A program made the position numbers and the translations under genes. Of a stretch of DNA of 64,000 bases, positions 6,120-21,482 are shown one piece after another. The stretch comes from an uncultured Oligoflexia bacterium (lineage in GTDB: Bacteria > Bdellovibrionota > UBA1018 > UBA6935). Under the pieces are notes generated by a model that saw only the letters and a program-made list of their open reading frames with translations, ran no database searches and had not been told where the DNA came from. The first letter of the stretch is position 1, and each line of letters begins with the position of its first letter. The stretch spans positions 93,601 through 157,600 of the forward strand of contig CAXGWU010000001.1 of assembly GCA_964013565.1 (NCBI GenBank). The letters run 5' to 3'.

Positions 6120-8230
6120 GAGAGTTTAGATTTCATTTGTTCTAAAAAAGAAGACACCTTCTGTTCGTGTGCTTCTCGAAGAACTTGGCTTGAAAGATCA
6201 GGTGTAGATGAGACATCTTCTGTGAAAATTAAGTTTCCGGGTATTTCTGATAGGAATCGAGAAGGGTACCGAGGTACTGGTTTCCCGTATCGAATTCTAT
6301 TTTTTGCACGAGTCAGATAGAGTTTTTCTTTTGCACGAGTGATTCCAACGTAGCAAAGACGACGTTCTTCACTATAGTCTGTTGCTTCATCCATGACTCT
6401 TTGATGAGGAAGGTAACCATCCTCCATTCCCACTAAAAAGACAGTGGGGAATTCTAAGCCTTTTGAGCCATGTAAAGTCATGAGTGTCACTTCGTCTTTT
6501 TCCTTACTTTCCTCTTCTTCGCTTTCTTCTTCGGCATCAAGAGTCAATCGAGTGATGTATTCTCTTAAAAACATAAAGCTGTTTTCAGCAGGTTCTTCAA
6601 GTTTCATCTGTCCAAGGCCATGTGCGAGCTCTTGAACCATTTCCCATCGCTGAGATGCTTGTAGGGCATCATCAACGTCGTTTTCTATTCCAGTTCTCAT
6701 TCCTATCCATTCAAAAGTTTGCCTTGCCCAGTCCGCCATAGCCGTTGGTTCAGGCTCAATCTTTTCTAATGCGTTTCTCATCTTTTGGATAAGAGAAGCG
6801 AAGGTCATGACCGCTTGTTTGGGTTTAGTCTTTAAGTCTGCATCAGGAATTGACTCAAAAAAAGAACATTGGTTTTCTACTGAATGGCTATGAATGGTGT
6901 CGATGGTTTTTTTCCCGATTCCTCTTGCAGGCCAATTAATGATTCTTCGAAGTGCAGTTTCTTCATCTGGATTTAAAATCGTTTTCCAGTAACTGAGGGT
7001 ATCTTTGATTTCTTTTCGGTCTAGAAAAGAAAAAGATCCAACTAAACGATAAGGAATCCCTTTCATTCGGAGTGCTTCTTCGAAATGTCTACTTTGTGGA
7101 TTGGATCGAAATAGAATTGCAAAATCACTCCAGTTCATGAGTGTTTTGACTTCCCCTCCCTCGTGTTTTTTTGCGAGATCAAAAATTCGCTCGGCTACGG
7201 TAGTTGCTTCGTCATGATCATCTTCAGTTAAGATGAGTGTTATCGGAGGTCCATCTTCTTTTTGAGACCAAAGCGACTTAGGGTGCCTAACCGAATTATT
7301 TTGAATAACTTGATTTGCGGCATCTAAAATAGTTTGTGTGCTTCGATAATTTTGATCAAGAGTTACTGTTTTTGCTCCTGGGTAGTGTTTTCCAAAATTT
7401 AAAATGTGGGAAGGATCAGCCCCCCTCCAAGCATAAATAGATTGGTCATCGTCTCCCACCACGCAAATATTTTGTTGCTTTAGGGTAAGGAGTCGAATGA
7501 GTTCAAATTGGGCTTGATTGGTGTCTTGGTACTCATCAACAAGAATGTATTTAAATCGATCATTATAGGCGTCACAGACTTCAGGGTGTTTTTTTAATAA
7601 ATCAACAGCGTTGAATAATAAATCGTCAAAGTCCATCGCATTCATGGCCCGAAGTTGATCTTGATACTCCGGATAGGTGGTTGCCATTTCTAAAGCAATT
7701 GGAGAGGATGCCTCATTTCTAGCTGAATTCATAAAAAAAGCTTCAGATTGATGAGGGGGAATAAATCTGTTTTTTGCTTGTCCAATTCCAAACAAGATAA
7801 AAGAAGGATCGAACTTTTTATCATCCACACTATTTTTTCTTAGAATTTTTCTGATGATCTCAATTTGATCATTTTGATCTAAAATAGAAAATTGTGAAGT
7901 GTATCCTAAGCGACTCGCTTCTTGTCTTAAGATTTTAACGCAAAGACTATGAAAAGTAGAAACAGTTAGTCCTTGTGTTCTTTTTTGTGTGATTTTTCTC
8001 ACTTCTGAATAAACGCGGTCTCTGAGTTCTCCAGCAGCCTTATTTGTAAAGCTAAGTCCTAATATTTGGCGCGGAGAGACCTTCTTTTGAGTAATCAAAT
8101 GAATCATTCGATAGGTCATTGTGCTGGTCTTTCCACTCCCTGCTCCTGCTAGGACAAGAAGGGGACCTTCTTCGTGGAGAACGGCTTGGCGTTGATTTGG
8201 ATTGAGTTTTTTTAAGTACTTCGTTTGCAT
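6116..8230 (-). CDS. uvrD: UvrD/PcrA/Rep-family ATP-dependent DNA helicase
   Basis: Helicase SF1 motifs AGAGSGKT, DEYQDTN, QNYRS, LHGSKGLEF and VGITRAK. Confidence 0.9.
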   Translation of the reverse strand: MQTKYLKKLNPNQRQAVLHEEGPLLVLAGAGSGKTSTMTYRMIHLITQKKVSPRQILGLSFTNKAAGELRDRVYSEVRKITQKRTQGLTVSTFHSLCVKILRQEASRLGYTSQFSILDQNDQIEIIRKILRKNSVDDKKFDPSFILFGIGQAKNRFIPPHQSEAFFMNSARNEASSPIALEMATTYPEYQDQLRAMNAMDFDDLLFNAVDLLKKHPEVCDAYNDRFKYILVDEYQDTNQAQFELIRLLTLKQQNICVVGDDDQSIYAWRGADPSHILNFGKHYPGAKTVTLDQNYRSTQTILDAANQVIQNNSVRHPKSLWSQKEDGPPITLILTEDDHDEATTVAERIFDLAKKHEGGEVKTLMNWSDFAILFRSNPQSRHFEEALRMKGIPYRLVGSFSFLDRKEIKDTLSYWKTILNPDEETALRRIINWPARGIGKKTIDTIHSHSVENQCSFFESIPDADLKTKPKQAVMTFASLIQKMRNALEKIEPEPTAMADWARQTFEWIGMRTGIENDVDDALQASQRWEMVQELAHGLGQMKLEEPAENSFMFLREYITRLTLDAEEESEEEESKEKDEVTLMTLHGSKGLEFPTVFLVGMEDGYLPHQRVMDEATDYSEERRLCYVGITRAKEKLYLTRAKNRIRYGKPVPRYPSRFLSEIPGNLIFTEDVSSTPDLSSQVLREAHEQKVSSFLEQMKSKLS

Positions 8231-8310
8231 GGACGATCTTTACTTTAAGGATACGCGGTGCGCTAATCAATCAGAATTCCTTGATTTTATAAGAATCAAA
8301 AAGGAAAAGT

Positions 8311-9795
8311 TTATCGTTTACTGTTAAAAGACAAAAATACACGATTGCATTTTAAATTTTCCCAGCTTTTTTGGTGATCTTGATAAGATTTCACAAGGTT
8401 ATCCAGTATTCTGTTTTTGAAAGGAGCCTTTTCAGAGAAAATTCTTGTTACTTTTTTGCTTGTCATTGAAATTTTTTGAATCAATGTAAAAAGGGTTACC
8501 GAAGGCTGAACGTCTCTTAGAACAGTATTGAGAATGTTTTCAAATTCTTTAGAGGAGATTTTCTTGTTTTTTCGTGCTACGGCTGTTTGTTCAAGAACGA
8601 GAAGAGGGATCCAGCGGTTTTTATAGTTTTTTGAAATTCTATGATAGAATTCAAAAAATTTAGAAATATCTTGTTTTTTACTTTCTTTGTTGAATGGTTT
8701 GTAAAAATTAGCAATTTCAGAATTGATAGATTCAATGTTTATTTTTTCTTTTTCCATTTTTAAAAGTAAATCTTCTTCATAATTCTTTTTTGAGATTCTT
8801 TTTTTTGTCCTATTCTTGATTTTGAATTGGTAGCCTAGCGCTTGAGCTTTTTTTATGACTTCCGCTAAAAAAGAATCGCTTGTAACAAGTTCGTAAATCG
8901 CTTTTTGATATCTAAGGAGATTCATTCTTACATCCGAAGACTTGGGGCCGAGTGACTTGGCGTAGCTATGATTGTTTTTATCTGTTGTAATTTCTGCAAA
9001 GCTTTGATTCCACGCGCCTACATAATGTTCATATCCAACTTCAGCAAACTTTGTTGAGACTTGATCATAGTAGTGAAGAGGAACGATGTTTTTATGATAT
9101 TCTGTTTGATCTGCTTGTTCTAAATTTTTTAATGTAGTTTCTTGAATTTTTCTTTTTTCCTTTAGTTCATATATGGATTCTCGAAAGGTTGGGGCAACTA
9201 CGCCTATAAAATAAAGTCGAGAAATGATGTCTTTGAGGTTTCCCCCGGAGTTTTCGTAGAGTCGGTACATTGCAGCAAGACAAGCTCGTCCTTGTCGTCC
9301 ATTTCCTTTAGAAACGGTGTCTACGAGTATGAGAGGTCTACCATTCATTCCATTTTTTAAGTCAAACCCTTTGCTTTTAAAAAGGCTATAGATTTGTTCG
9401 TCTGTAGGGTTGAATTTTGGACTAAAATCAGGATCCATTCCAAAAGTTGCTTTACTCATCCCCACTCTAATTACTTTATTGGGTTCTCCGATGCTATTGA
9501 AAAACCCTTCAATAATATCTGAAAATATTAGACTATCTCGACCTAAGAAGCCAAAAACTGCGTCTGGATAGATAAAAGATAAATGAGCGATAAATCTTGG
9601 TGCCTCTTTTTCTATAAATTGAAACCAATCAGGAAAAGGATTGTTTCCAGGAATTTCTTTTAAAACAGATTCCACCTTCTTCATAGATGGTCTTACGTTT
9701 TGATTGATTAAATTATTAATATCTTGGTCTTTTTGAGTCCAAGATAACATAGGAGAAAATAAGATAAGTAAGGCAATATATATTTTTGTTTTCAT
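8311..9795 (-). CDS. exported hypothetical protein, GRD-family paralogue (PRTase-like motifs, tentative)
   Basis: Signal peptide MKTKIYIALLILFSPMLSW. FGFLGRDSLIFSDIIEGFF..GEPN..IRVG and GRPLILVDTVSKGNGRQG resemble the HGPRT-type VLKGGYKFFADLL and VLIVEDIIDTGKT loops. Full-length paralogue of 16931-18463. C-terminal KCNRVF motif. Confidence 0.45.
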   Translation of the reverse strand: MKTKIYIALLILFSPMLSWTQKDQDINNLINQNVRPSMKKVESVLKEIPGNNPFPDWFQFIEKEAPRFIAHLSFIYPDAVFGFLGRDSLIFSDIIEGFFNSIGEPNKVIRVGMSKATFGMDPDFSPKFNPTDEQIYSLFKSKGFDLKNGMNGRPLILVDTVSKGNGRQGRACLAAMYRLYENSGGNLKDIISRLYFIGVVAPTFRESIYELKEKRKIQETTLKNLEQADQTEYHKNIVPLHYYDQVSTKFAEVGYEHYVGAWNQSFAEITTDKNNHSYAKSLGPKSSDVRMNLLRYQKAIYELVTSDSFLAEVIKKAQALGYQFKIKNRTKKRISKKNYEEDLLLKMEKEKINIESINSEIANFYKPFNKESKKQDISKFFEFYHRISKNYKNRWIPLLVLEQTAVARKNKKISSKEFENILNTVLRDVQPSVTLFTLIQKISMTSKKVTRIFSEKAPFKNRILDNLVKSYQDHQKSWENLKCNRVFLSFNSKR

Positions 9796-9797
9796 TT

Positions 9798-11288
9798 CTA
9801 TTTTCCTCTCATGAGTGCAATTGCATCTTCTTCTGAATCAATAAGATGAATTCTTCTTTTTAACCATTCAGGGTAATGATCAGAGATTAAGTTTTTAAGT
9901 AACGGTTTATAGAATTCGCTATTTATAAAAGCTAATTGAGAGCGCTTATTTGGATTTCCAGAAAAATCAACAAAAGTTGTTGCTAGTTCTTTCATCGTTC
10001 CATTGCCTCCAGGTCCTACAAAAATAAGGTCTTTGTCGTGCAGTAAAAAAGGAATTCGTGTTTCATAATCCATTGATTCAATGACAAATCTTTTATTGCT
10101 AAAAGAATAAGATTTCCCAATGATAATATCGATGGCAGTTCCTCCATTATCAATGCTTGCATTTGCTGCGGCTTCCATGAGGCCACCCCCCCCACCGCTT
10201 GATAAGATATATTTATTTTTTGCAGAAACTTTAGCTACGAGTTGAACTAGTTGTCTCCAGCGATAGTCAAACGAACTAGACCCAAAAAAAACCGCTTTTT
10301 TATGATCTTTCAAACTTTCAGAAATATAATCTATATCTTCAATTCCAGCTAAGTAATTAGAGATGATTAATTTAAAACTATAATCAAATTGATGACTAAA
10401 CTTTTCTTCGTTGAAAGGAATAATGCTTTTATATCTATTGGGACCCGGAGTAATAAAACTTAAGTCATTTTTAATTTTTAAGTATGAAGACTTAAATTTT
10501 CCTAATGCTTTGAAATTTAAAAAGTCTGAATCCCATTCATTTTTATAGTTAATGAGGAAATCTAGTTTATCGATTAAATGAAGAGCTAAGGCTGTAACAG
10601 AACGAGTATCACCTACTGACTTTCCTATAGAAAAAGCTTTAAGTCTTAAGTAAGGATTTTCAATTGCAATGATGTTTTCATTTAAATTTTCTTTATTTGG
10701 GTCCGCAGTAATGCCTACTCCAAGTTTCCCTAATGTTTTTTGTATATCTTTCGCTGATATTGAATCTGCATCGTAGAAAAATATTTGAGAAAAATTAGAT
10801 AGTGTTTTTTTGAGTGAATTGAGATCGACTGTGGTTGGGTAATCGGTGGTTCCAAAAAGAAGAGTGTATGGATTCATATTGGAAAACGAATCTAACCACT
10901 TAAATCTCATAAGATCTGAAAGAAATGATTTTGATTGATCTTTTCTATCTAATTTAAAAATTTCCTCTATTGATAATTCTTGAGGTTTACTACTTTTTGA
11001 TGGAAGTTTTCTATTCTTGTTTTCGTAATGACTATTGGAATAACCTTTATAAGAATATGGGCTGTCTGTATCTAGACTTGTAACTGGAGATTGATAATCA
11101 AATTGGTATGTGTTGTTAACAGCAATCTCACTTATATCAGGAACTTCATCAATTTTAGGTGGTTTGATTCCGTGAATTCCAAAAACTAAAGCGCATTGAG
11201 AAGAAAATAAATGGTCCAAATTAGAAGTAGCGTTGGATGTTAATGTATAGATGATACCTACTATAGATATCAAAAAAAGATTTTTCAT
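9798..11288 (-). CDS. exported tandem LOG/TIGR00730-like protein (degenerate N-repeat plus intact C-repeat)
   Basis: Signal peptide MKNLFLISIVGIIYTLTS. The C-terminal domain carries both LOG signatures, SSGGGGGLMEAAANAS and VGPGGNGTMKELAT. Paralogue of 15189-16880 (YETRIPFLLHDK / YETRIPLLLHEK). The single Cys lies in an N-terminal CALVF. Confidence 0.65.
   Translation of the reverse strand: MKNLFLISIVGIIYTLTSNATSNLDHLFSSQCALVFGIHGIKPPKIDEVPDISEIAVNNTYQFDYQSPVTSLDTDSPYSYKGYSNSHYENKNRKLPSKSSKPQELSIEEIFKLDRKDQSKSFLSDLMRFKWLDSFSNMNPYTLLFGTTDYPTTVDLNSLKKTLSNFSQIFFYDADSISAKDIQKTLGKLGVGITADPNKENLNENIIAIENPYLRLKAFSIGKSVGDTRSVTALALHLIDKLDFLINYKNEWDSDFLNFKALGKFKSSYLKIKNDLSFITPGPNRYKSIIPFNEEKFSHQFDYSFKLIISNYLAGIEDIDYISESLKDHKKAVFFGSSSFDYRWRQLVQLVAKVSAKNKYILSSGGGGGLMEAAANASIDNGGTAIDIIIGKSYSFSNKRFVIESMDYETRIPFLLHDKDLIFVGPGGNGTMKELATTFVDFSGNPNKRSQLAFINSEFYKPLLKNLISDHYPEWLKRRIHLIDSEEDAIALMRGK
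10186..10193 (-). repeat. G8 homopolymer (C8 on the plus strand) inside the LOG GGGxG motif codons
   Basis: Direct read: ggccaccccccccaccgc. On the coding strand this is ggt ggg ggg ggt ggc, encoding GGGGG. Confidence 0.95.
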
Positions 11289-13237
11289 TTTATGTCCCCA
11301 ATAAAATTTTTCTCACATTTTTCCTCAATATCTCCATTAATTACTTCTTTTATAAATGTTTTTTTTATGTGAAGAGATTGAGCCCATTTATTTCCGAGTT
11401 CATCTAAATAGAGGAGTCTAGTTTCGGTATCTGTGGTTGTCGGAATGAGATGACCGTAGTACCAAAGGCTCCACGTTCCATTGTGAAAATATAAACTATC
11501 TGGAGTTAAACCGTGAATATATAGATTTAAATGAACTAGATGATCAAAAAAATCCGCAAGTGCTGTCCATGCAATTGTTTCATGAATTGGAACCGCTGCT
11601 TTATTTGAAAGCTCTCTTAAAGAAACTCCTTGTGGTTCATCTATCGCAACAAAATAAAGACTGTTTCTTATCTTAGAAACAATAATTCTATTCTCTTGTA
11701 GGTGCAATAGCTCATAGTATGAAGGTGTTCCTGGGTCAAACCTAAAGATCACTTGTTTTAAATTTTTTTCTTTTTGAATGATTTCATATTTTTTCAATTC
11801 TCCAATGTTCACTTTTTTTGGCGAAGAATTAATAAAAGGAGGCTCTTTTTTTATGTCATTATTTTCATAATTTAATTCATTACTTTTTTTTCGTCTTTTC
11901 TTTTTGGGACCTTTTGAATGATTTTGGAAGTTTTGTTTATCTAGTAATTCTTTCCAAAATAAATCAATTTCTTTTTTTTTGCTTTTAAGTTCTTCTCTTA
12001 ACCATTTTGTTTTTAGTTTGTTTGAGTATTCATTTAGAGTTCTATGTTTGCTGAAAAAAGTTCTAATTGGTCCGCTATCAACTATTTGCCATTCTTTTCC
12101 ATCAAAAATAAGATTGTCAGGGTTTAATCCGGAGACATAAATGTATTTTTCAGAAGCTTTAATGAAAAATTTTTCTAGTGCTAATTTTTTTGGGTTATTT
12201 TTTGTGTCTAAAATTTTTTCATCGAGAATCGCTTCTCTTAATCGAGTTCCTTCAATGAAATTCATAAGTAGAGACTTTTTATCTGTACTCCATTTCACAT
12301 TAACTGAAGACAGACCGTTTTTTCTCCATTCTTCTGATAGCTCTATCTGTTTTTTGAAACTTTTTTGAATATCCGCACTATCGTTTACTGGAACTTTCCA
12401 AGCCCATAGTTCTCCATTTGAGTCCTTTAACTGATGAACTCTACCTGTTTTTCCAACGCCTACGGCTTCTTTTTCTAATGAGTAACCTTCCGGAATATCG
12501 ACCTCTTTAACTGAGTTAATGAGAGCTAATAATTTTTCCCAGTTTTTTTCTTCAATCAAATCTTTGGCATTTTGTAAGAACTTTCTCCTTTGGCTAACTT
12601 CGGTAATGGTATTGGCTTTTTTTAGAACTTGAAAATGAATTGGTTCGAGATCAATTTTTGGGAAAACATACCGACTCAATCGCCTGAGAGTTTTTGTGTT
12701 TGCTCGGCTTGTGATAATCCAAATTAATTCAAAATCATCTCTATAAGAGGATAGAGGAAGGATATGTTTTGTAAAAGATTCTAATTCATCTAATGGTATG
12801 ATCGCTGCTGTATAACGAAGAGAAGGAAGTAAATTTTTTTCATTACTTTGAGTGAATAGTTTAAAGAGTGTAGAAAAGTTATAAATTTTTTTGTCGCTTA
12901 AAATGCCAATTAGAACATTGTTATTGTTTTTTCCTTTTTCTGAATGCAAATATTGATTAATAATGATGTCTCTTAGACAGAAACTTTCTGTCGCTAGTTT
13001 AATATAAAATTTATCAGGTGGGTTGTTTTGTGATTTAATGATTTCATCAATGATAGCTATATTCATCGCTTTATATTCATTGCTTTTCGCCAAAGATAGT
13101 TTTTTTATAACCTGAGAAATCGCCTCCCACTGTTGATTTTCGATTAGTTTTTTGAGTCGATGTGGAACCACGGTTTGAGCATGTGCTGGTATGATAAAAA
13201 ACAGACAAGCTAAATATAAGAAAATTTGTTTTTTCAT
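11285..13237 (-). CDS. exported protein with two atypical protein-kinase-like modules
   Basis: Signal peptide ending AHA-Q. Module 1: GVGKTGRV (G-loop), WAWKV, LLMNFIEG (hinge), GLNPDNLIF, IVDSG. Module 2: FVAIDEPQGVSL, IHGLTPDSLYF. Lys-rich linker KGPKKKRRKK. C-terminal KCEKNF. Confidence 0.45.
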   Translation of the reverse strand: MKKQIFLYLACLFFIIPAHAQTVVPHRLKKLIENQQWEAISQVIKKLSLAKSNEYKAMNIAIIDEIIKSQNNPPDKFYIKLATESFCLRDIIINQYLHSEKGKNNNNVLIGILSDKKIYNFSTLFKLFTQSNEKNLLPSLRYTAAIIPLDELESFTKHILPLSSYRDDFELIWIITSRANTKTLRRLSRYVFPKIDLEPIHFQVLKKANTITEVSQRRKFLQNAKDLIEEKNWEKLLALINSVKEVDIPEGYSLEKEAVGVGKTGRVHQLKDSNGELWAWKVPVNDSADIQKSFKKQIELSEEWRKNGLSSVNVKWSTDKKSLLMNFIEGTRLREAILDEKILDTKNNPKKLALEKFFIKASEKYIYVSGLNPDNLIFDGKEWQIVDSGPIRTFFSKHRTLNEYSNKLKTKWLREELKSKKKEIDLFWKELLDKQNFQNHSKGPKKKRRKKSNELNYENNDIKKEPPFINSSPKKVNIGELKKYEIIQKEKNLKQVIFRFDPGTPSYYELLHLQENRIIVSKIRNSLYFVAIDEPQGVSLRELSNKAAVPIHETIAWTALADFFDHLVHLNLYIHGLTPDSLYFHNGTWSLWYYGHLIPTTTDTETRLLYLDELGNKWAQSLHIKKTFIKEVINGDIEEKCEKNFIGDIK

Positions 13238-15192
13238 TTTTTAAGGTTTCCAGGTGTTCCAAATAGGATTTGACATGTCGAAGTACTGTTAGAACTAAAG
13301 CTCTTATTTTTACGACTGTCATGATAAAAGAACTCTTTTAAAAAATTCATATCTGAAAGCATTTCAGTTTGAGTTTTGTCTGTAAAAAAATAAGTATAAA
13401 ATCCTTTATTGAGACGTGGAGTGTAGTCTACATTAACAATTTGCTCAGCGTTATCGACCTGAAAATTTGCGGCTTTGAAGTCTAACCAAATGTTTTGTTC
13501 TGCTGCAATTTTTTTTGCGATAAGCCATTGTTCCAATACCTGGTTTTTTATTTTTTTCGGTATTTCTTCAATTGGATTTTGAGAATATTTTGCTTCTAAG
13601 TTTTTTCCGTCAAAGTAAGTTTGTTCTACAATTACCCCTGTTGGATGTGCATAAAGTATTTTTGCATGCCTAAAATTTGGATAATTTTTTAGAATTCTAT
13701 CTTGTGTCCATTTTTGCAAAAGAGATTTACGTGCATTTTTTGGGTTTTTTGTAATTTTAATAACTCTATTTTTATCACTTAAAAATACTTGTACATTTCT
13801 ACCTTCTCCTAGATATCCTTTTAACTTATAGAGGACTGCATTATTAGAGGTTAGAACCATTGGGTAATTTGGATCATCGCTTTTTTTGATTTCCAGAGAT
13901 GAAAAAAAGTCATTTGCTCCCTCTAATGGTTCCAGATATTGCCAATCTTTCATAGCACTGAAGCCTTTTTGATGGACTTCAGATATTTCCTGAAATAAGA
14001 GTTCGTTTTTGTTTAAGTCTTTTTTGTTTTTTCTTATTTTTTCTTGATTTTTAGTGGTCTTCTTTTTTACTGGAATAATTGTTTCAGCAAGTCGTAGATC
14101 AGATACTAGTCCAAGGAGTGATATAACTTTTTGAGATAGTTTTATAGGTTTGTCACTATAAATATGAAGTGACGGTTTTGTTTTAAATTTTAGTCCTGTT
14201 TGTATAAACTTATGACGATGCTCTAGTAGATTGTGAACATGATCAGCATCCCAGTGATTAATTGCTCCTGGAATAGCGATTTGAAATCGTTGAATAGAAA
14301 AAAAATAATCAGTTTCGGTGAGTTTTTTAATAGTCTCTGAAGAGAGTTCTTCGTTGTTCCTGGTGTAATTGTTGATAATATCTTTAAAAGAAGAGTTTCC
14401 ATCTACTCTTTTTGATCTCAAATATCTGAAATCTACAAGTTTCAGGAATTGAGTTGCTTCAGATTTATTTAGGTTTTCACAAATGGCTCTTAAAATTGCT
14501 CTGGGAATTTTTCCAGACATACTTGAATCCATAAATACTAAGCCATTTTTTAATAATCTCTCTTTTGTTAGTCCGATGGAATTTAATAAATGGTAAATTT
14601 CAGAAGTTTGATGGTTGAAGATTAAGTCTCTTATTTTCCTTGATACATTAAGGGTGTAAAGAAAATTTTTATCTATAGATTTTTTTAAAGAGATAAAAAG
14701 ATATGGAGCCGTAAAGTCTCTTCCTATAAAAAATAAATTTTTATTATTAAAATCTCTTTTGATTTCATTTTCTATTTGAGCGATTACAGGAATGATGACT
14801 TCTGTTTCGTATTCTTGAGTGTAACGAATAAGTTGATCTGTTATTTTTTTAGAATCAATTGAATCTAAAGAAACAACACCGATTTTTTTGTCTAATTCAA
14901 GAGCACTATTTTTAAGTTTTGAGCGTTTATTTGACCAATGAAAAAAGAGTTCATTGAAAAACTGAGTTTTTTCTTGAGTCGTTAGAGTTTTAACTTCTTC
15001 TAAAATTAAATAGATGTCATTACGAATTGACTCTAAAATATCGGTTTGAATCCATTTTTTAAGAAATTCATCGTAGCTATTAGAGTTTTGGGCTTGAAGA
15101 GCTGATTCATAGTGATTTTCTATTACATCGCTGGAAAATACATTAGTCTCAGTAAAGCAAAATAATAGAATAAATAAAATTAATTTATTCAT
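13234..15192 (-). CDS. exported fusion of a GRD-family (PRTase-like) N-domain and an ePK-like kinase C-domain
   Basis: Signal peptide MNKLILFILLFCF. N-half: LFFIGRDFTAPYLFISL and GLVFMDSSMSGKIPR. C-half: LGEGRNVQVF (GxGxxxxV), VIKITK (VAIK-like), VIVEQTYFDG (hinge), WLDFKAANFQV (DxKxxN), NVDY (DFG-like). C-terminal TCQILF. Confidence 0.55.
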   Translation of the reverse strand: MNKLILFILLFCFTETNVFSSDVIENHYESALQAQNSNSYDEFLKKWIQTDILESIRNDIYLILEEVKTLTTQEKTQFFNELFFHWSNKRSKLKNSALELDKKIGVVSLDSIDSKKITDQLIRYTQEYETEVIIPVIAQIENEIKRDFNNKNLFFIGRDFTAPYLFISLKKSIDKNFLYTLNVSRKIRDLIFNHQTSEIYHLLNSIGLTKERLLKNGLVFMDSSMSGKIPRAILRAICENLNKSEATQFLKLVDFRYLRSKRVDGNSSFKDIINNYTRNNEELSSETIKKLTETDYFFSIQRFQIAIPGAINHWDADHVHNLLEHRHKFIQTGLKFKTKPSLHIYSDKPIKLSQKVISLLGLVSDLRLAETIIPVKKKTTKNQEKIRKNKKDLNKNELLFQEISEVHQKGFSAMKDWQYLEPLEGANDFFSSLEIKKSDDPNYPMVLTSNNAVLYKLKGYLGEGRNVQVFLSDKNRVIKITKNPKNARKSLLQKWTQDRILKNYPNFRHAKILYAHPTGVIVEQTYFDGKNLEAKYSQNPIEEIPKKIKNQVLEQWLIAKKIAAEQNIWLDFKAANFQVDNAEQIVNVDYTPRLNKGFYTYFFTDKTQTEMLSDMNFLKEFFYHDSRKNKSFSSNSTSTCQILFGTPGNLKK

Positions 15193-16880
15193 CTTTTATT
15201 CCTCTTTTTATTAAAGAAATAAATTTCTTCATCTAAAAGGCCAAAGCTGAAGAGGGTCTCTATAGTGATTTTTAATTCAAAATCGTTTTTGACAAAATGA
15301 ATTCTATCTTTAATGAATTGCGGAATTGATGAGCTGTCGATTTGATTTTTTAAGCCACTGTAATAGTCATCACCCACAAAAATGATCTCTAATTTTTCTT
15401 TTGGGTTTTCTAGAAGTTTTAGAATCGTTATCCAAAATTCTTTCATGGTTCCAGAGCCTCCTGGAACAAAAACAACAAGTTGTTTTTCGTGAAGAAGGAG
15501 AGGGATTCGGGTTTCATATCCACTACTCGAAACGGTAAGAGAATGATGTTCTTTTTCTACTTTTTTTTCTGTTTTTAGAGTGTGTTTACCCGTGATAGGG
15601 ATCCCAACTGATGGAACATGAGATGATATTGCTGCAGTATTTGAAGTTTTCATGGCACCGCCAGCTCCGCCAGTCGTGATGCTAATATCAAGAGATCCTA
15701 AGGCGAGACCAGATTTGAAAATAAGGTTCTCAAAAGGATTCTCATCCCTTCCCGTTCCAAAAACTGCAGCTCCTCTTACTCCTGTTAAATCTTCTTGTCC
15801 GATTAGAAGTTCAGTAACTTCTTTGACGATATGATCAATTTGATAATCAGAAAGGTCTGAAAGAGTTATTTTTTTTGGTTTAAATTGTTTTGTAATTATT
15901 GGGAAAATTTCTGTCTCAACGTGAGGAGAGGTACGAATAGGCTCTCCTGCAAGGTCAAATTCTTGATTAAAGTAACTTTTACTGTAGATAGGAGATGAAG
16001 GGATTTTTTTAATCGCTGTAGTAACGGTTGTAGCTTGATCAAAAATAGGTATTTCTTTAGTTCGAACTCCCATGTTTATGTTCATAAGATCTAAGTCTTG
16101 TTTCCATTGATGAAGAGAAAAGTTCCATTCTTTTTTTGGATCAAAAATAATGTCTATTTCATTATTGAATAATCCCGCAAATCCAGTTGTGGAGTCAGGA
16201 GTTGTAATTATTTTTTCCGAGGTGTTAAATAAAGCCTGTGCTCTTAAGTAGGTGTTTTTAATGTAAACTTGGCCTCTTTGTTTTGTTGGTTGATTAGAGA
16301 TACCAAAAGATGATTTTTGAGCTAGAGATTGAATTAGTTTAGCGTAAGGACTATTTGATTCGTAGAGGATAAAATATCCACGAGAAATAAATTGAGAAAC
16401 TAATTCGGTCAATTCAGTTTGCATTTGAGGATCAGGCTGTGTTCCAGAAGTCCCTGCAAGAATCGTCACTGTTTGTTTTGAATTTAGTTTTTTTAATCTT
16501 TCTAGGTTGAGGTGATCTTGAATGTACTGACCTTCAGTAGTTAATAATACCAATTCAAGTGCTTTTAGGTTTTTTTCTCTGTTTGTTTTTTTTAGACGTT
16601 GAATCTCTGAAGTTATTTGAGCTATTTGCTTTTTTACCGATTGATTTTCTTTTTTTCCAGAATTACTAAAAATTTTTTTTAGTAATCCTCTTTGTTTTTT
16701 AGAAATTTTTTTAGTATTTAAAGACGTTAATTTTTTTTCTAATTCTTTAATCCGTTCTGACTCCTGATTTAGACTAGTTAGTCGTTCTAATGTGGATAGA
16801 CGACTTAAAAAATTTTCTTCACATCCGGCTAAAGAGAAGTGATGGGCAATTAAAGTTAAAATAATAATAAGTTTTTTCAC
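15189..16880 (-). CDS. exported (lipobox) coiled-coil plus tandem LOG/TIGR00730-like protein
   Basis: MKKLIIILTLIAHHFSLAGC (lipobox LAGC, then CEENF). Lys/Glu-rich coiled coil. Degenerate first repeat (TILAGTSG..ITTPDSTTGFAG). Intact second repeat with TTGGAGGAMK and VPGGSGTMKEF. Confidence 0.65.
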   Translation of the reverse strand: MKKLIIILTLIAHHFSLAGCEENFLSRLSTLERLTSLNQESERIKELEKKLTSLNTKKISKKQRGLLKKIFSNSGKKENQSVKKQIAQITSEIQRLKKTNREKNLKALELVLLTTEGQYIQDHLNLERLKKLNSKQTVTILAGTSGTQPDPQMQTELTELVSQFISRGYFILYESNSPYAKLIQSLAQKSSFGISNQPTKQRGQVYIKNTYLRAQALFNTSEKIITTPDSTTGFAGLFNNEIDIIFDPKKEWNFSLHQWKQDLDLMNINMGVRTKEIPIFDQATTVTTAIKKIPSSPIYSKSYFNQEFDLAGEPIRTSPHVETEIFPIITKQFKPKKITLSDLSDYQIDHIVKEVTELLIGQEDLTGVRGAAVFGTGRDENPFENLIFKSGLALGSLDISITTGGAGGAMKTSNTAAISSHVPSVGIPITGKHTLKTEKKVEKEHHSLTVSSSGYETRIPLLLHEKQLVVFVPGGSGTMKEFWITILKLLENPKEKLEIIFVGDDYYSGLKNQIDSSSIPQFIKDRIHFVKNDFELKITIETLFSFGLLDEEIYFFNKKRNKR

Positions 16881-16930
16881 CGTTTATTTAGTCCTTTTTT
16901 AAAAGTAAGATTTGCTTTTTTTAAAATGAT

Positions 16931-18463
16931 TTATTTTTTATCTATTTGTGTAAAAATTCGATTACATCCAGTTTTTGTAAGATAATCTGAGATGGTTTTA
17001 GTGTGTTCCGAAATTTTCCCTCCAAATTTGTCGGAGTTTTTAAATTCATCTTCTCTTTTTTCAAACATAGATCTGAATTTTTCATCGTTTTCATAAAGCT
17101 CCCGAATAGCTTTTAGTTGATCGTCAGAAAGAGAAGGAGTGTTGCCTAGGACATAACGATAAAGTCGTTTATAATCTCTTCCTTTAATTTTCTGAGAAGC
17201 TCTTGCTCTAGTGATAGCCTGCATAAATGGGACAATGATTTTGTCTTTAAAATCTGTATTTTGAAATTGCTTTAACCATTGAAGGTAGTGATTTCCGTTG
17301 TTTGAGAGTTTGTTTGTGATTTCTCCGGGTTCATTTAAAGATTGTTCTATTTCAAAAAGGTTTTTTAGATGTTCTTTAAGTTGTTCTTGTTTTTTCTCTT
17401 CTTGAAGAGCTAATTCTTTTTTTCTTTGTTTTTTTCTTTCATTGATTTGTTGTGACGTTAGTGATTGATAAAGTTTTGAATTTCCATCTAAATCAATTTT
17501 ATAGAGTTTTAGATATTCATCTAATTTGTCTTTAAATTCATTAGATTTAATGAGTTCGATAATTATATAAATTTCTTGTAAAACAGTTTTTTTTGAAATA
17601 TTCGAAAATTGCACGCCAGAAATTGGAATAAGTTTTTCGTTTATTTCTTTAAAACCTAGCCATGAATCATGCCACTCTGAAGTCCTATGATTTATCCTAA
17701 AAAAAGTTCCATAACTTGTGCTTAATCGTGGAACCGGTACGCCGTCTATATGAGATAGTGATGATACGTTTTCGAAAAAGTTTTCCTGATCAAAGTCTTC
17801 GTTGATAGTATGTTTTAGGTTGTTGTCGCTAATATTAACAAACGCAATTTTTCCAAGAAGATCTTTTGGGTCTTTTCCTAGATTTTTGTAGGTTTCATAG
17901 AGATATCTCATCGTTAGCCTGGATTGGCTTGCTTCTCCTCCTCCTCCTCCACTGGTATAAGTTGGGCTATAGCTACTAAAATCATAGAGAACCCAAGGGG
18001 CACTTTCTGTAATGGTATCGAAGTTAATGCCTAGAGACTGAGCATATCGAACAATGGTTTCTGAGGAAGAGTTTTTAAAACTTGGAGTACTTGCGTTGAA
18101 TCTTCCTGCGCGATTAGGCTCACCTCTCAGATAGTAAAACGCTTCCAGGGCTAGACTATTTTGGATGACATCTCTTCCAAGAGAAAAATATCTTCCTCCA
18201 GGAAAGGCTTTTTCAAAACTTACAATCATTCTGGCGATATTGTTTATAGCATTAGGGTAAGCATTAGCGATAAACTCTTGATTAAGCATTTTTTCATGAC
18301 TCGGCCATGGGTTGAGTACAGTGAGCATTTCTTCGATTGTGGGAACTGTTTTTTTTTGTACTAACTCATCAATTTGATTTTCTAATTGTGTTTGATCAGA
18401 AAAAGCAAAAGAAATGAAAAGAAAGTGGAGGCTAAAAAAAATAGATTTATTTATGAGTTTCAT
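16931..18463 (-). CDS. exported hypothetical protein, GRD-family paralogue (PRTase-like motifs, tentative)
   Basis: Start taken at internal Met MKLINKSIFFSLHFLFISFAF (signal peptide). This removes the overlap with the upstream gene. YFSLGRDVIQNSLALEAFYYLRGEPN and WVLYDFSSYSPTYTSGGGGGE. Single Cys in the C-terminal GCNRIF. Confidence 0.45.
   Translation of the reverse strand: MKLINKSIFFSLHFLFISFAFSDQTQLENQIDELVQKKTVPTIEEMLTVLNPWPSHEKMLNQEFIANAYPNAINNIARMIVSFEKAFPGGRYFSLGRDVIQNSLALEAFYYLRGEPNRAGRFNASTPSFKNSSSETIVRYAQSLGINFDTITESAPWVLYDFSSYSPTYTSGGGGGEASQSRLTMRYLYETYKNLGKDPKDLLGKIAFVNISDNNLKHTINEDFDQENFFENVSSLSHIDGVPVPRLSTSYGTFFRINHRTSEWHDSWLGFKEINEKLIPISGVQFSNISKKTVLQEIYIIIELIKSNEFKDKLDEYLKLYKIDLDGNSKLYQSLTSQQINERKKQRKKELALQEEKKQEQLKEHLKNLFEIEQSLNEPGEITNKLSNNGNHYLQWLKQFQNTDFKDKIIVPFMQAITRARASQKIKGRDYKRLYRYVLGNTPSLSDDQLKAIRELYENDEKFRSMFEKREDEFKNSDKFGGKISEHTKTISDYLTKTGCNRIFTQIDKK
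17936..17950 (-). repeat. (TCC)5 trinucleotide repeat, i.e. (GGA)5 on the coding strand, encoding GGGGG
   Basis: Direct read: tcctcctcctcctcc within gcttctcctcctcctcctccactgg. Confidence 0.95.
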
Positions 18464-18464
18464 T

Positions 18465-19850
18465 TTATTTAATCTTTCTGCGTATAAATAACGTTTTACA
18501 AAGTGGAGTCTTTTTTTCTCCTGAAAATACAGACTGTAAAGTTTCCGAAATTTCAAAACCTAAATTTAAAACTGATATATCTGGCTGAGTAATGTTAAAT
18601 GAATTCGTCACAACCATGAGATCAATGTCTGGCGAGTCAATTGCTTTTTGAGCGTTTCCTGCAAGATGGCTAACAACACCAAATATCTTATTTGCACCAT
18701 GCTTTTTAAGAAACTCTGCTGACTCGGCAAGTGTTCCTCCAGAGGCAGTTTCGTCATCAACAATCGCTACAGTATGCCCTTTTACAGAGTCTCCACTAAT
18801 CCCGAGAATACGAGTCTCTCCAGTGAGAGGATTTCTTTTCTTATTGATAATTGCGAGGGGTAGGTGAAGTTCTTCTGCATATAAAGTAGCATCTTTTTGA
18901 AAACCAGCGTCAGGAGAAACGATAATAGAAACTCCCAGTTTCTTGAGTTCTTTATTGATTGTTTCTCTTCCGTTGATTTCAAAAACAGGGATAGAAAAAA
19001 AACCTACACTCTGAGGTGCATGCGGTCTTACAATTGTTATTGTTTTTACTCCTAGTCCCTCAATGAGGTCAGCAGTGAGTCTTCCTGTTACAGTAATTCC
19101 AAATTGATCTATCTTATCTGATCGAGCATAAGGAAGGTAGGGAGAGATCAGGTGAACTTGTTGCCACTTTGATTGAGTGCTATATATTTTATGTAAAGTA
19201 TCAAAAAATGATTTGTTTATTGGAGACTCAAGAGAAGATACATAAAATATATTGTATCCAGAGAGCTTTTTATTGTTGGGGTTCCATTCAGATTCTTGAA
19301 TGACTGGGATATTGAGTTGTTTTGATAAGGTGTCTCTCAATGAAGGGTTTGTGTCTCCTACAATTGCAAACTTTTTTTTAAAATTTTTTGTTTTTGTTTG
19401 ATATTCTGGAAAGTCATAATCTTGGTTTGCAATACGGTAAGATTCCGCCCCCGAAATTTTGAAAAGTTTTAATACAAAAGTTGAAGGTAAGGATTCAGAT
19501 TCAAAATGAACGGATATTGATAAGGCACCCATTGTTTTAGCGGTGCGAACTTTAATGAGAGCTTCCATAAGAAGGTCATCATGATCTTCAATGTTGTTTG
19601 GAATATACAGAGTTAGTTTCTGATTGATAGGATTTTTTAAAAATCGAACAAAAGTATTTCCGTTGCTAAACTCCGTTGTTTTTGTCGGAAGAATTTTACT
19701 TTCAATAGTTTCAGAATACGATTGAGTCTTTGCCTCATATCCACGAATTCCAACAAGCCATGGCTTTTTAGAAGCGATACAAACATTTGAAAAGCTAAAG
19801 CTTAAAAGAAATAAAAGTCCAAATTGTATTTTTTTTTGTGCCCCACCCAT
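18465..19850 (-). CDS. ribose-phosphate pyrophosphokinase (PRPP synthetase) homologue with signal peptide and an extra degenerate N-half
   Basis: Prs motifs LISPYLPYARSDK, SPDAGF, the flexible loop KKRNPLTGETRILGISGDSVKGH, the PRPP loop VAIVDDETASGGTL, and VVTNS. The N-terminus MGGAQKKIQFGLLFLLSFSFSNVCIA looks like a signal peptide. Residues ~50-150 repeat the Prs N-half (FSNGNTFVRF..DDLLMEALIKV). C-terminal LCKTLF. Confidence 0.7.
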   Translation of the reverse strand: MGGAQKKIQFGLLFLLSFSFSNVCIASKKPWLVGIRGYEAKTQSYSETIESKILPTKTTEFSNGNTFVRFLKNPINQKLTLYIPNNIEDHDDLLMEALIKVRTAKTMGALSISVHFESESLPSTFVLKLFKISGAESYRIANQDYDFPEYQTKTKNFKKKFAIVGDTNPSLRDTLSKQLNIPVIQESEWNPNNKKLSGYNIFYVSSLESPINKSFFDTLHKIYSTQSKWQQVHLISPYLPYARSDKIDQFGITVTGRLTADLIEGLGVKTITIVRPHAPQSVGFFSIPVFEINGRETINKELKKLGVSIIVSPDAGFQKDATLYAEELHLPLAIINKKRNPLTGETRILGISGDSVKGHTVAIVDDETASGGTLAESAEFLKKHGANKIFGVVSHLAGNAQKAIDSPDIDLMVVTNSFNITQPDISVLNLGFEISETLQSVFSGEKKTPLCKTLFIRRKIK

Positions 19851-20214
19851 TAATACTTTTGATCCTTTCTTATGTGTTTCTAGGAGTCCTTAGAATTCGA
19901 ATTGCAATGTGTCAATCTGTATGGTTAAAAAAATTATAAGAAGAATTTGCTTTTTATAATTAAAACCAACTTAGATTGTTGTTTATGAATAGATTGATTT
20001 AATGAGATTTCTTTATAGATAACCGGTTATTTGATTTTAAAATCGGTTTGTTAATGCCTATTTTGTTGTTTAGAAGAATCCAATGATAAATTAATGCATA
20101 TTGCTAATCTAAATGGATGGAAGTTCTACAGTTTAATGAATAAAGACGAAGGATCTAAAGTTTATGAATGTGTCTGCCTTGTTCTAAATGAGGATCATGC
20201 TAGAGTACCATGCG

Positions 20215-21009
20215 ATGAAAAATTATCTCGAATTGATGGAAAAGGTTTTGGTAGAGGGGACTCATAAAGAAGATCGGACAGGAACTGGAACAATAAGCTT
20301 ATTTGGCCATCAGATGCGATTTGACCTCGAAGAAGGTTTTCCTTTGGTGACGACAAAAAAAGCTCATCTTAAGTCGATCATTTATGAACTTCTTTGGTTT
20401 TTAAGAGGTGAAGGGAATATTCAATATTTAAAAGATCACAAAGTCACCATCTGGGATGAGTGGGCGGATCAAAAAGGTGATTTAGGGCCAGTCTACGGTG
20501 TTCAGTGGCGTTCCTGGCCAAAGCCGGATGGTCAGGTTGTTGATCAAATTTCTACAGTGGTTAATCAAATAAAAACAAACCCGGATTCTCGGAGATTAAT
20601 TGTCAGTGCGTGGAATGTAGGAATGCTTGATAAAATGGCTCTTCCTCCATGTCATGCTTTTTTTCAATTTTATGTCGCAGAAGGAAAGCTTTCTTGCCAG
20701 CTTTATCAAAGAAGTGCGGACTTGTTTTTGGGGGTTCCTTTTAATATTGCCAGTTACAGCTTACTCGTGTTGATGATGGCTCAGGTTTGTGGATTAAAGC
20801 CAGGGAGTTTTGTACATACTTTTGGAGATGTACATCTTTATACGAATCATTTAGAGCAAGCAAAAACTCAGCTCTCTCGAATTCCAAGAAAAAAACCTCT
20901 GATGAAACTAAATCCTGAAGTCAAAAATATTTTTGACTTTAAGTATGAGGATTTTGAATTGGTTGATTATGATCCGTATCCTGCAATCAAAGCACCGGTA
21001 GCAGTATGA
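20215..21009 (+). CDS. thyA: thymidylate synthase ThyA
   Basis: From [26 protein letters not shown] the protein is collinear with E. coli ThyA (264 aa). Active-site PPCH. Confidence 0.95.
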
Positions 21010-21482
21010 TTTCATTAATTGCTGCAATGGCGGAAAACCGGGTGATCGGCAAAGATGGAACGCTTCCTTGGAATATCCCTAGTGAAATGAAGTATTTTAG
21101 GGAAACAACTTCTGGATGTCCGATCATCATGGGAAGAAAAACGTTGGAAGAGTTAGGTGGAAAGCCCCTACCTAAAAGACGTAATATTGTAATCACTAGA
21201 AATAGAGATCTAGTTGTAGACTCTCGGATTGAGGTTTTTCATTCTCTTAAGGAAGCGATTGAAAATATTTCCTCTCAGATAGAAGTTTTTGTCATTGGTG
21301 GTGCTCAAATGTATAAGGAAGCTCTTCCATACTGTGATCGAATTTATTTAACTTCTATTCATGAGACTTACGAGGGAGATACTTATTTTCCTGAATTTAA
21401 CGAAGAGAGTTATGAGATTATTCGTGAAACATTTGTTGAAGAAGATCCTTCTTATACGATTCGAGTCTACCAAAAAAAATAG
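21006..21482 (+). CDS. folA: dihydrofolate reductase
   Basis: [39 protein letters not shown] overlap with thyA. Confidence 0.92.

Follow-up and report, generated by a model that had tools for sequence, protein, structure and literature searches.

PRPP synthase (Prs), which makes phosphoribosyl pyrophosphate (PRPP), is a textbook cytoplasmic housekeeping enzyme. The question raised here is why an apparent Prs from an uncultured Oligoflexia bacterium should begin with a signal peptide and carry an additional domain. Its gene lies on a 64-kb stretch of DNA (assembly GCA_964013565.1, contig CAXGWU010000001.1), hereafter called the window, and all coordinates are window positions. On balance, we lean toward reading the gene as that of an exported PRPP synthase peculiar to its lineage, with an export-linked mechanism that would act on the ATP of prey.

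The open reading frame (ORF) starts with ATG and encodes 461 amino acids, and public gene calls, made independently, give an identical product (MBN20591.1, "hypothetical protein CL678_04815"). That entry originates from a Bdellovibrionaceae/Pseudobdellovibrionaceae metagenome-assembled genome (MAG) of the marine Tara Oceans collection, and its NCBI annotation has never gone beyond "hypothetical." The Pfam families Pribosyltran_N, Pribosyl_synth, and Pribosyltran were all detected: PF13793 scored 59.5 bits (cutoff, 25) and PF14572 scored 41.5 bits (cutoff, 27), both profiles having been named as a check in an earlier note on this DNA, and PF00156 was likewise above its cutoff. The Prs subfamily model TIGR01251 scored 180.4 bits (cutoff, 113), and the best solved Prs structures matched at an E value of 6.5e-29, with canonical Prs only 23 to 31% identical. 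An AlphaFold2 model, built with 81 family members that are 32 to 43% identical to the query, was very confident (pLDDT, 92.6; pTM, 0.90), and Foldseek overlaid it on the Prs of Escherichia coli, M. smegmatis, Thermus thermophilus, and Bacillus subtilis with target-normalised TM scores of 0.81 to 0.84, about 0.82. These matches and the loop conservation described below agree with the earlier note, made from the sequence alone, which had called the protein a Prs homologue with catalytic elements; every string that it quoted was found in the product, namely MGGAQKKIQFGLLFLLSFSFSNVCIA at residues 1 to 26, EFSNGNTFVRF at 60 to 70, DDLLMEALIKVRTAK at 91 to 105, YARSDK at 241 to 246, and DDETASGGT at 365 to 373. 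We conclude that, by sequence and predicted fold, the 461-amino-acid protein is a ribose-phosphate diphosphokinase (Prs) homologue. Its parts are as follows.

18465 to 19850, minus strand: ATG-initiated gene of the long-form PRPP synthase, 461 amino acids plus stop (public MBN20591.1).
19773 to 19850, minus strand: predicted Sec-type signal peptide MGGAQKKIQFGLLFLLSFSFSNVCIA, residues 1 to 26, with an n-region of +2, an h-region, and a CIA/S site.
19401 to 19772, minus strand: extra Prs N-domain copy (putative pseudo-subunit), residues 27 to 150, in which the flag hairpin and LMEALI helix are present and the YARSDK loop is missing (pLDDT, 94 to 98).
19641 to 19673, minus strand: EFSNGNTFVRF flag-region beta-hairpin motif, residues 60 to 70, in which F61, N63, N65, and V68 each show conservation of 90% or more.
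18981 to 19400, minus strand: core N-domain, residues 151 to 290, with the flexible loop and His277 present and the flag deleted or replaced (ESEWNPNNKKL).
19113 to 19130, minus strand: YARSDK regulatory flexible (RF) loop, residues 241 to 246, with R243 and D245 invariant.
18513 to 18980, minus strand: C-domain of the type I phosphoribosyltransferase (PRTase) fold, residues 291 to 446, with the pyrophosphate (PP) loop SPDAGFQK at 312 to 319, the catalytic loop INKKRN at 335 to 340, and the ribose-5-phosphate (R5P) loop.
18732 to 18758, minus strand: DDETASGGT R5P/PRPP loop, residues 365 to 373, with D365, D366, E367, and G371 invariant.
18468 to 18512, minus strand: C-terminal tail KTPLCKTLFIRRKIK, residues 447 to 461, with C451 as the sole Cys in the mature protein.

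The core carries all of the conserved catalytic loops (YARSDK, His277 of the D/R-x-H motif, SPDxG, N-K-x-R, and DDETxxGGT). In the alignment of 81 sequences, R243, D245, H277, Q280, D314, G316, K319, R339, D365, D366, E367, G371, and H395 were invariant, and the invariant residues coincided with known functional loops: R243 and D245 in the flexible loop, H277 and Q280, D314, G316, and K319 in the PP loop, R339 with K337 in the catalytic loop, and D365, D366, E367, and G371 in the R5P loop. We conclude that the catalytic apparatus of the core appears to be intact, and the predicted activity is the conversion of R5P and ATP to PRPP and AMP.

The earlier note had also described a degenerate Prs N-half-like repeat ahead of a complete enzyme. 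The repeat was borne out, as hhalign aligned residues 27 to 150 with the protein's own N-domain (residues 151 to 290) at 94.9% probability and an E value of 4.4e-8 over 101 columns; the same residues gave no match to the protein's own C-domain. In a joint alignment with canonical Prs, the extra domain covered the entire N-domain, with EFSNGNTFVRF in place of the canonical flag RFSNGNLSVQI and LMEALIKVRTAK in place of the canonical helix IMELFIIIDALR after the flag. The word "complete" did not stand, since the core has had its own flag hairpin deleted. The core N-domain retains the flexible loop, with the flag hairpin replaced and shortened to ESEWNPNNKKL, and a hairpin of the type F-S-D/N-G-E/N at the canonical spot, roughly 59 residues before the RF loop, is a feature of Prs membership that it lacks. 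Spacing in relatives was similar, as the distance from F-x-N-x-N to the single RF loop had a median of 189 amino acids in 81 of 96 long forms and was canonical in none, compared with about 59 amino acids in 49 of 57 canonical Prs. We conclude that, on profile alignment, the extra domain is a genuine Prs N-domain copy and that the two N-domains have lost complementary parts, with the flag found only in the extra domain and the flexible loop only in the core.

Complementary loss points to a function for the extra domain, namely that of a pseudo-subunit acting in cis. The active site of a Prs subunit is completed by the flag hairpin of the subunit opposite it (PMC5395218), and flag residue E39 of the human enzyme and R96 of the adjacent subunit's RF loop jointly recognise adenine (preprint 10.64898/2026.06.01.728777). 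In the flag of the long form, the equivalent of E39 is Asn (N65). The pTM of 0.90 indicates that the domains are confidently positioned relative to one another in the model. We conclude that the extra domain is probably a fused half-subunit that gives the flag in cis, such that the protein would be a single-chain pseudo-dimer with one active site. To judge by these features, the protein belongs to the Prs superfamily yet departs from canonical Prs both in its own flag hairpin and in the two-domain cytoplasmic architecture.

One way in which a Prs-derived protein could depart further is if it were exported but no longer a PRPP synthase, having become a diphosphoryl-transferase for a different phosphosugar or nucleotide, a catalyst of the reverse reaction (PRPP + AMP -> ATP + R5P), or a nucleotide- or phosphosugar-binding subunit within an exported complex. 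Equivalog hidden Markov models of housekeeping Prs all scored far under cutoff (NF002320, 143.9 versus 297; NF002844, 139.2 versus 438), so the substrate or product could have shifted. The low identity to canonical Prs, the Asn at the E39 position, the replacement of the canonical ESxSxLF-type C-terminal tail, and the unusual compartment are also in keeping with a changed reaction. However, the loops that bind the ATP phosphates, Mg, and R5P are all invariant, and a flag of the F-S-N-x-N type is also found in bona fide bacterial Prs (the closest canonical matches and the Thermus-type enzyme). Moreover, PRPP-consuming PRTase domains adjoin or are fused to the long Prs in relatives, as fits a PRPP producer. 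We consider a changed reaction unlikely and retain PRPP synthesis as the predicted activity.

Signal peptides were judged by a heuristic from a positive n-region, an uncharged hydrophobic h-region that spans 8 or more residues, and the presence of small residues at positions -3 and -1. The 461-amino-acid protein has two Lys residues in the n-region, an uncharged hydrophobic run from residue 8, and candidate cleavage sites that include CIA/S (26/27), and residues 2 to 24 form a detached helix in the AlphaFold2 model. No twin-arginine motif was present in its n-region, MGGAQKK. The pattern was found in 106 of 110 full-length relatives without conservation of sequence, 103 of these also having the (-3,-1) site, and the same heuristic flagged 3 of 57 canonical Prs, all three of which resemble false positives. 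The signal peptide proposed in the earlier note held up as one of Sec type, and that note's own caveat, that the N-terminal region might not be translated, was contradicted by the pattern in the relatives and by the signal peptides throughout the operon described below. Since signal features are conserved in more than 100 relatives, the N-terminus is predicted to be translated and under selection. We conclude that an untranslated N-terminus is very unlikely.

An alternative account of the gene would be an ordinary cytoplasmic housekeeping Prs, the N-terminus being untranslated, the product of a mis-called start, or a membrane tether on the cytoplasmic face. Prs is otherwise universally cytoplasmic, no second prs was found within the window, which covers 64 of the 271 kb of its scaffold, and Lys residues follow the h-region. 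Those Lys residues, at +2 and +3 past the predicted cleavage site, are not ideal for Sec export, and most relatives have neutral or acidic residues at these positions. Nonetheless, the n/h/c pattern has been kept in the relatives despite sequence divergence, no other in-frame ATG is found ahead of residue 95, and gene callers working independently agree on the start. All six co-directional neighbours and their homologues also have signal peptides, and the net-positive n-region predicts that the C-terminal part is outside. Moreover, the family is confined to one phylum, and none of 61 other loci has it at the canonical-Prs positions. We regard a housekeeping Prs as highly improbable and proceed with an exported enzyme.

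About 116 database proteins of 426 to 500 amino acids share the full long-form architecture. Among representative genomes of 185,579 species, the long form was found in 19 loci, all of which were Bdellovibrionota MAGs, assigned to Bdellovibrio, Pseudobdellovibrionaceae, Bdellovibrionales, Oligoflexia, and Oligoflexales. In the next-best loci, which came from other phyla, alignment was limited to the core and started at about residue 150 to 200, indicating that they encode ordinary Prs. We conclude that, among these genomes, the long-form Prs is restricted to Bdellovibrionota. A 2026 survey of more than 35,000 PRPS sequences makes no mention of Bdellovibrio, signal peptides, secretion, fusions, or tandem domains, and literature searches gave no earlier description of an exported or periplasmic PRPP synthase, of prs in Bdellovibrio, or of a C-terminal cysteine sorting signal of the kind described below.

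The Prs gene leads a run of seven closely packed genes that all point the same way (8311 to 19850, minus strand), and of the six junctions between them, four are either ATGA overlaps of 4 nt or gaps of 1 to 2 nt. All seven products start with a signal-peptide-like sequence, as do the homologues in related loci L001 to L011. Synteny of the cluster around the long-form Prs was found in 10 of the 19 loci, and the families that flank it all have a signal peptide. Downstream of Prs, the cluster encodes the following, in which GRD denotes a domain described below.

16931 to 18463, minus strand: 510-amino-acid protein with a signal peptide, a GRD domain, and a C-terminal Cys motif (C500); public MBN20592.1, starting 1 nt past the Prs stop.
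15189 to 16880, minus strand: 563-amino-acid protein with a lipoprotein-type LAGC lipobox and a C-terminal LOG/SLOG domain (TGGAGGAM, PGGSGTMKE).
13234 to 15192, minus strand: 652-amino-acid protein with a signal peptide, a helical region, a GRD domain (about residues 143 to 259), a kinase-like C-terminal domain, and a Cys motif (C640).
11285 to 13237, minus strand: 650-amino-acid protein with a signal peptide, kinase-like domain(s), and a C-terminal Cys motif (C641).
9798 to 11288, minus strand: 496-amino-acid protein with a signal peptide, an N-terminal Cys motif (C32, CALVF), and a C-terminal LOG/SLOG domain (SGGGGGLM, PGGNGTMKE).
8311 to 9795, minus strand: 494-amino-acid paralogue of the 510-amino-acid protein with a signal peptide, a GRD domain, and a C-terminal Cys motif (C483).

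A longer version of the 510-amino-acid gene, starting at TTG 18556 (16931 to 18556) and overlapping the Prs gene by 92 nt, was rejected as an artefact of ORF listing because the product from ATG 18463 begins with a signal peptide and equals MBN20592.1. Two neighbours encode LOG-type enzymes. LOG family members split the N-glycosidic bond of nucleotides and so free R5P, which is the substrate of Prs. The 563-amino-acid protein matched PF03641 (33.1; cutoff, 27) and the 496-amino-acid protein matched PF18306 (32.5; cutoff, 26.3), and both retain the GGGxGxM and PGGxGTxxE motifs, with the PpnN and TIGR00730 equivalogs far under cutoff. The 652-amino-acid protein keeps the kinase fold with the G-loop, the beta3 Lys, D-x-K-x-x-N, and the second (Mg-binding) Asp, and these motifs indicate that it is apparently an active, exported ATP-dependent kinase. 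Its AlphaFold2 model was mediocre and was built on 4 sequences. Homologue searches returned 3 matches for this protein and 1 for the GRD family, for which AT-rich, low-complexity composition is probably to blame.

The GRD domain is found in the 494- and 510-amino-acid products and in the N-terminal part of the 652-amino-acid product and is characterised by an invariant G-R-D, Ser, and Asp. A library of 1.84 billion proteins contained 242 representatives, and by sequence the domain matched nothing in Pfam, NCBIfam, or the PDB; searches of the PDB by sequence and by profile with the neighbours of uncharacterised type returned chance or low-complexity matches only. A Pfam scan of large multidomain representatives of the GRD family indicated a single Pkinase fusion. 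Assignment of GRD as a classical type I PRTase was rejected, being unsupported by sequence, and hhalign comparison of the GRD, kinase-like, and LOG families with the Prs domains indicated no relationship. In the model of the GRD domain, the invariant loops follow the strands in the order G-R-D, then Ser, then Asp-x-[ST]-S. The ribofuranosyltransferase Bcs3-CriT holds PRPP by three loops, namely S678-R679-D680, then S707, R708, and R712, then E818 and a phosphate loop, which come after the first, second, and third strands, respectively (PMC10299916). Profile searches with 25 and 86 GRD sequences retrieved neither 7shg nor 8a0c at an E value of 10 or less. We conclude from the modelled loop order that the GRD proteins may resemble PRPP-dependent, CriT-like ribofuranosyltransferases.

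All five protein families of the cluster share a terminal motif with a single Cys, C-x-x-[LIVA]-[LFYV], and the mature proteins are otherwise nearly free of Cys. In addition to C451 of Prs, the motif or its Cys lies at the following positions.

16931 to 16975, minus strand: Cys motif of the 510-amino-acid protein, C500.
8311 to 8355, minus strand: Cys motif of the 494-amino-acid protein, C483.
13234 to 13280, minus strand: Cys motif of the 652-amino-acid protein, C640.
11285 to 11325, minus strand: Cys motif of the 650-amino-acid protein, C641.
16821 to 16823, minus strand: Cys of the 563-amino-acid LOG protein, C20.
11193 to 11195, minus strand: Cys of the 496-amino-acid LOG protein, C32.

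Among long-form Prs, the motif was located 4 to 16 residues from the C-terminus in 80 of 106 proteins, compared with about 8% expected by composition and with 2 of 57 canonical Prs. It was C-terminal in 122 of 149 GRD representatives, in 15 of 15 GRD proteins in related loci, and in the kinase-like proteins (6 of 6 and 3 of 4), and in 12 of 12 LOG proteins it was instead found just past the signal peptide. No match was found to known sorting-signal models or to a published motif. We conclude that the Cys motif may serve as a disulfide tether or else as a new tag for sorting or attachment.

Variant loci indicated a different set of partners. In L012 and L019, which are more divergent, Oligoflexia-type loci, a gene directly upstream of the long-form Prs (L012, 9062 to 10201; L019, 8707 to 9822) encodes a signal peptide, a YjjX-type NTPase (NTPase_I-T), and a type I PRTase, and the Prs of both loci is without the C-terminal Cys motif. 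Fusions to the long Prs involve the YjjX-like NTPase_I-T domain and type I PRTase in P0092 (the ORF L014:1917-4226) and a Ppx/GppA domain in P0109; P0083 has a 200-amino-acid C-terminal extension to which no family was assigned. We take the exported PRTase beside or fused to the exported Prs in a second lineage as the best contextual evidence that PRPP is both made and used outside the cytoplasm. L012, an Oligoflexia MAG, also encodes a RING-finger protein of eukaryote-like type that has an Lcl domain at its C-terminus (7121 to 8281, minus strand), a hint that eukaryotic hosts, and not bacterial prey, may be the partners of some bacteria that carry the family. A TonB-dependent receptor (L012:11883-13976) is likewise found at this long-form Prs locus.

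Other features of the window were also recorded. The G+C content of the cluster genes is 0.296 to 0.354, versus 0.373 for the window and 0.37 to 0.40 for the flanking thyA, folA, and uvrD-like genes, and may reflect either foreign origin or a Lys/Asn-rich composition. The thyA and folA genes (20188 to 21482, with a 4-nt overlap) are divergent from the Prs gene and upstream of it, with 337 bp of intergenic DNA between. By tblastn, thyA and folA were near the long-form Prs in 0 of the 19 related loci, and their adjacency here is probably coincidental. A reading of the cluster as a defence system was rejected, as PADLOC gave only weak matches to phosphoribosyltransferase loops (ShosT, PsyrT) and one weak kinase match. 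Rfam and tRNA scans of the window gave no match, and promoter and terminator scans of positions 8000 to 20300 gave fewer matches than in shuffled sequence and were uninformative.

How might an exported Prs work? Ordinary Prs forms a "bent dimer" in which a subunit relies on the flag hairpin of its partner for a complete ATP site. In the long form, the extra domain would stand in for the partner in cis, and the resulting self-contained pseudo-dimer with one active site could function independently of the hexamers, with their allosteric regulation, into which cytoplasmic Prs assembles. Once exported by Sec, the enzyme would act outside the predator cytoplasm alongside the six exported products co-transcribed with it. 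Nucleoside monophosphates would be split into base and R5P by the LOG-type phosphoribohydrolases, and Prs would turn R5P and ATP into PRPP and AMP. Were the AMP to re-enter the LOG reaction, the net conversion would be ATP + H2O -> adenine + PRPP, with R5P catalytic. The PRPP would then be consumed by exported phosphoribosyltransferases, which would be the adjacent or fused type I PRTases in the Oligoflexia-type loci and possibly the CriT-like GRD proteins here, and the exported kinase-like proteins would also draw on ATP. The ATP would be supplied by the nucleotide pool of the prey (or host) during attack, such that energy charge is drained and ribose-phosphate and bases are salvaged.

Because ATP is absent from the bacterium's own periplasm, the prey or host pool is the likeliest site of action, and the cluster context, with kinase-like proteins that have intact ATP-site motifs and LOG enzymes that would release R5P, makes the use of prey ATP, as suggested in the earlier note, more plausible. 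Alternatively, the enzyme might be exported for the bacterium's own envelope, where periplasmic PRPP would feed CriT-like transferases and kinases that decorate its own surface glycans rather than act on prey. PRPP-dependent ribofuranosyltransferases do build capsules and O-antigens (PMC10299916, PMC11231755), and the LAGC lipobox predicts that one LOG protein is a lipoprotein. However, a periplasmic pathway of this kind has no known ATP source, and known ribofuranosylation with PRPP is cytoplasmic, with the extracytoplasmic route proceeding via polyprenyl-phosphate carriers, at least as summarised in PMC11127046. Furthermore, no glycan-export or polymerase genes are found within the cluster, and an envelope function would leave the LOG enzymes and kinases unexplained. 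We think a role in the bacterium's own envelope quite improbable and prefer action on the ATP of prey.

Several observations weigh against action on prey ATP. ATP is not normally present outside the cytoplasm, so the model hinges on an unproven prey or host source, and it offers no route from the periplasm to the prey compartment. All relatives are from MAGs or metagenomes and include no cultured predator whose lifestyle is known. The link between GRD and CriT leans on a mediocre model (pLDDT, 62) without sequence-profile support. To these must be added the low equivalog scores and the Lys residues past the cleavage site. A broader proposal is that Bdellovibrionota predators export an "extracytoplasmic PRPP economy," in which Prs and LOG convert the ATP and AMP of the victim to PRPP and adenine, CriT-like phosphoribosyltransferases and kinases modify or dismantle the prey, and a new Cys tag marks all components for sorting, tethering, or assembly; the energy charge of the victim would collapse, and phosphoanhydride energy would be captured. 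We offer this joint scheme as a tentative one and consider it rather unlikely in its entirety.

Comparison with known systems indicated which parts are new. The long form shares with class I Prs (T. thermophilus 7pn0/5t3o, E. coli 6asv, and B. subtilis 1dku) the same two-domain core fold, the YARxDK RF loop, the His, the PP loop, the K-x-R catalytic loop, and the DDxxxxGGT R5P loop, and its flag is of the F-S-N-x-N type of a Thermus-like subgroup. Canonical Prs, however, is a cytoplasmic protein of about 315 amino acids that forms bent dimers and hexamers and has an allosteric ADP/Pi site, whereas the long form adds a signal peptide and a third domain, has its flag shifted to that domain and deleted from the core, and ends in a Cys-containing motif. 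It also falls under all equivalog cutoffs, and its genomic context is an operon for exported proteins, not a housekeeping one. PRPS pseudoenzymes (PRPSAP1/2 and the yeast Prs1/Prs5 type) are similar in that a catalytically incompetent Prs-derived module is kept via inter-subunit interfaces with an active module, and paralogues of this kind are regulators of complex assembly (2026 PRPS survey). PRPSAP1/2-type proteins are, however, separate full-length polypeptides of the eukaryotic cytoplasm, whereas the long-form Prs keeps a half subunit, fused in cis, that apparently supplies the missing active-site element rather than regulating.

The neighbours are likewise related to, and distinct from, known enzymes. 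The GRD proteins share with CriT (Haemophilus influenzae Bcs3, 8a0c) and the T. composti enzyme (7shg) the loop order [S/G]-R-D, Ser, and acidic residue with phosphate loop after beta1, beta2, and beta3, and they would likewise be logical consumers of PRPP. The CriT-type enzymes differ in being cytoplasmic, in being paired with a HAD phosphatase, and in having no detectable sequence-profile similarity to GRD, whereas the GRD proteins are exported and carry the terminal Cys motif, one of them being fused to a kinase-like domain. The two LOG proteins have the domain and motifs of the LOG/PpnN nucleotide 5'-monophosphate phosphoribohydrolases but, in cluster-type proteins, these are part of large (496- to 808-amino-acid), exported products with an uncharacterised N-terminal region, an N-terminal Cys motif, and scores far under the equivalog cutoffs. 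A precedent in concept is given by Tas1, a (p)ppApp-synthetase toxin that is a secreted nucleotide-depleting effector. Another is Legionella Ceg14, a secreted ATP/dATPase effector that consumes target-cell ATP (PMC12092593). Like the proposed system, both are exported bacterial enzymes that drain the ATP of a target cell, but they have unrelated folds, are delivered by type IV or type VI secretion systems rather than a Sec signal peptide, and do not make PRPP.

If true, export of Prs across a predatory phylum would give the family both a new localisation and a new architecture. Through the complementary loss in its two N-domains, the long form would give a clear instance from nature of an active site that depends on a dimer being rebuilt in one chain. 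The operon as a whole, with its exported Prs, LOG, and kinase-like proteins, dark-matter domain, and Cys motif, may be more novel than the enzyme, and it exposes two pieces of protein "dark matter": the GRD domain family and the shared terminal-Cys motif, which may be a new sorting or assembly signal. Finally, the operon gives concrete candidates for the exploitation or destruction of prey nucleotide pools by predators and would bear on an old question, namely the unusually high energy efficiency of intraperiplasmic growth and the reuse of nucleotides in Bdellovibrio.

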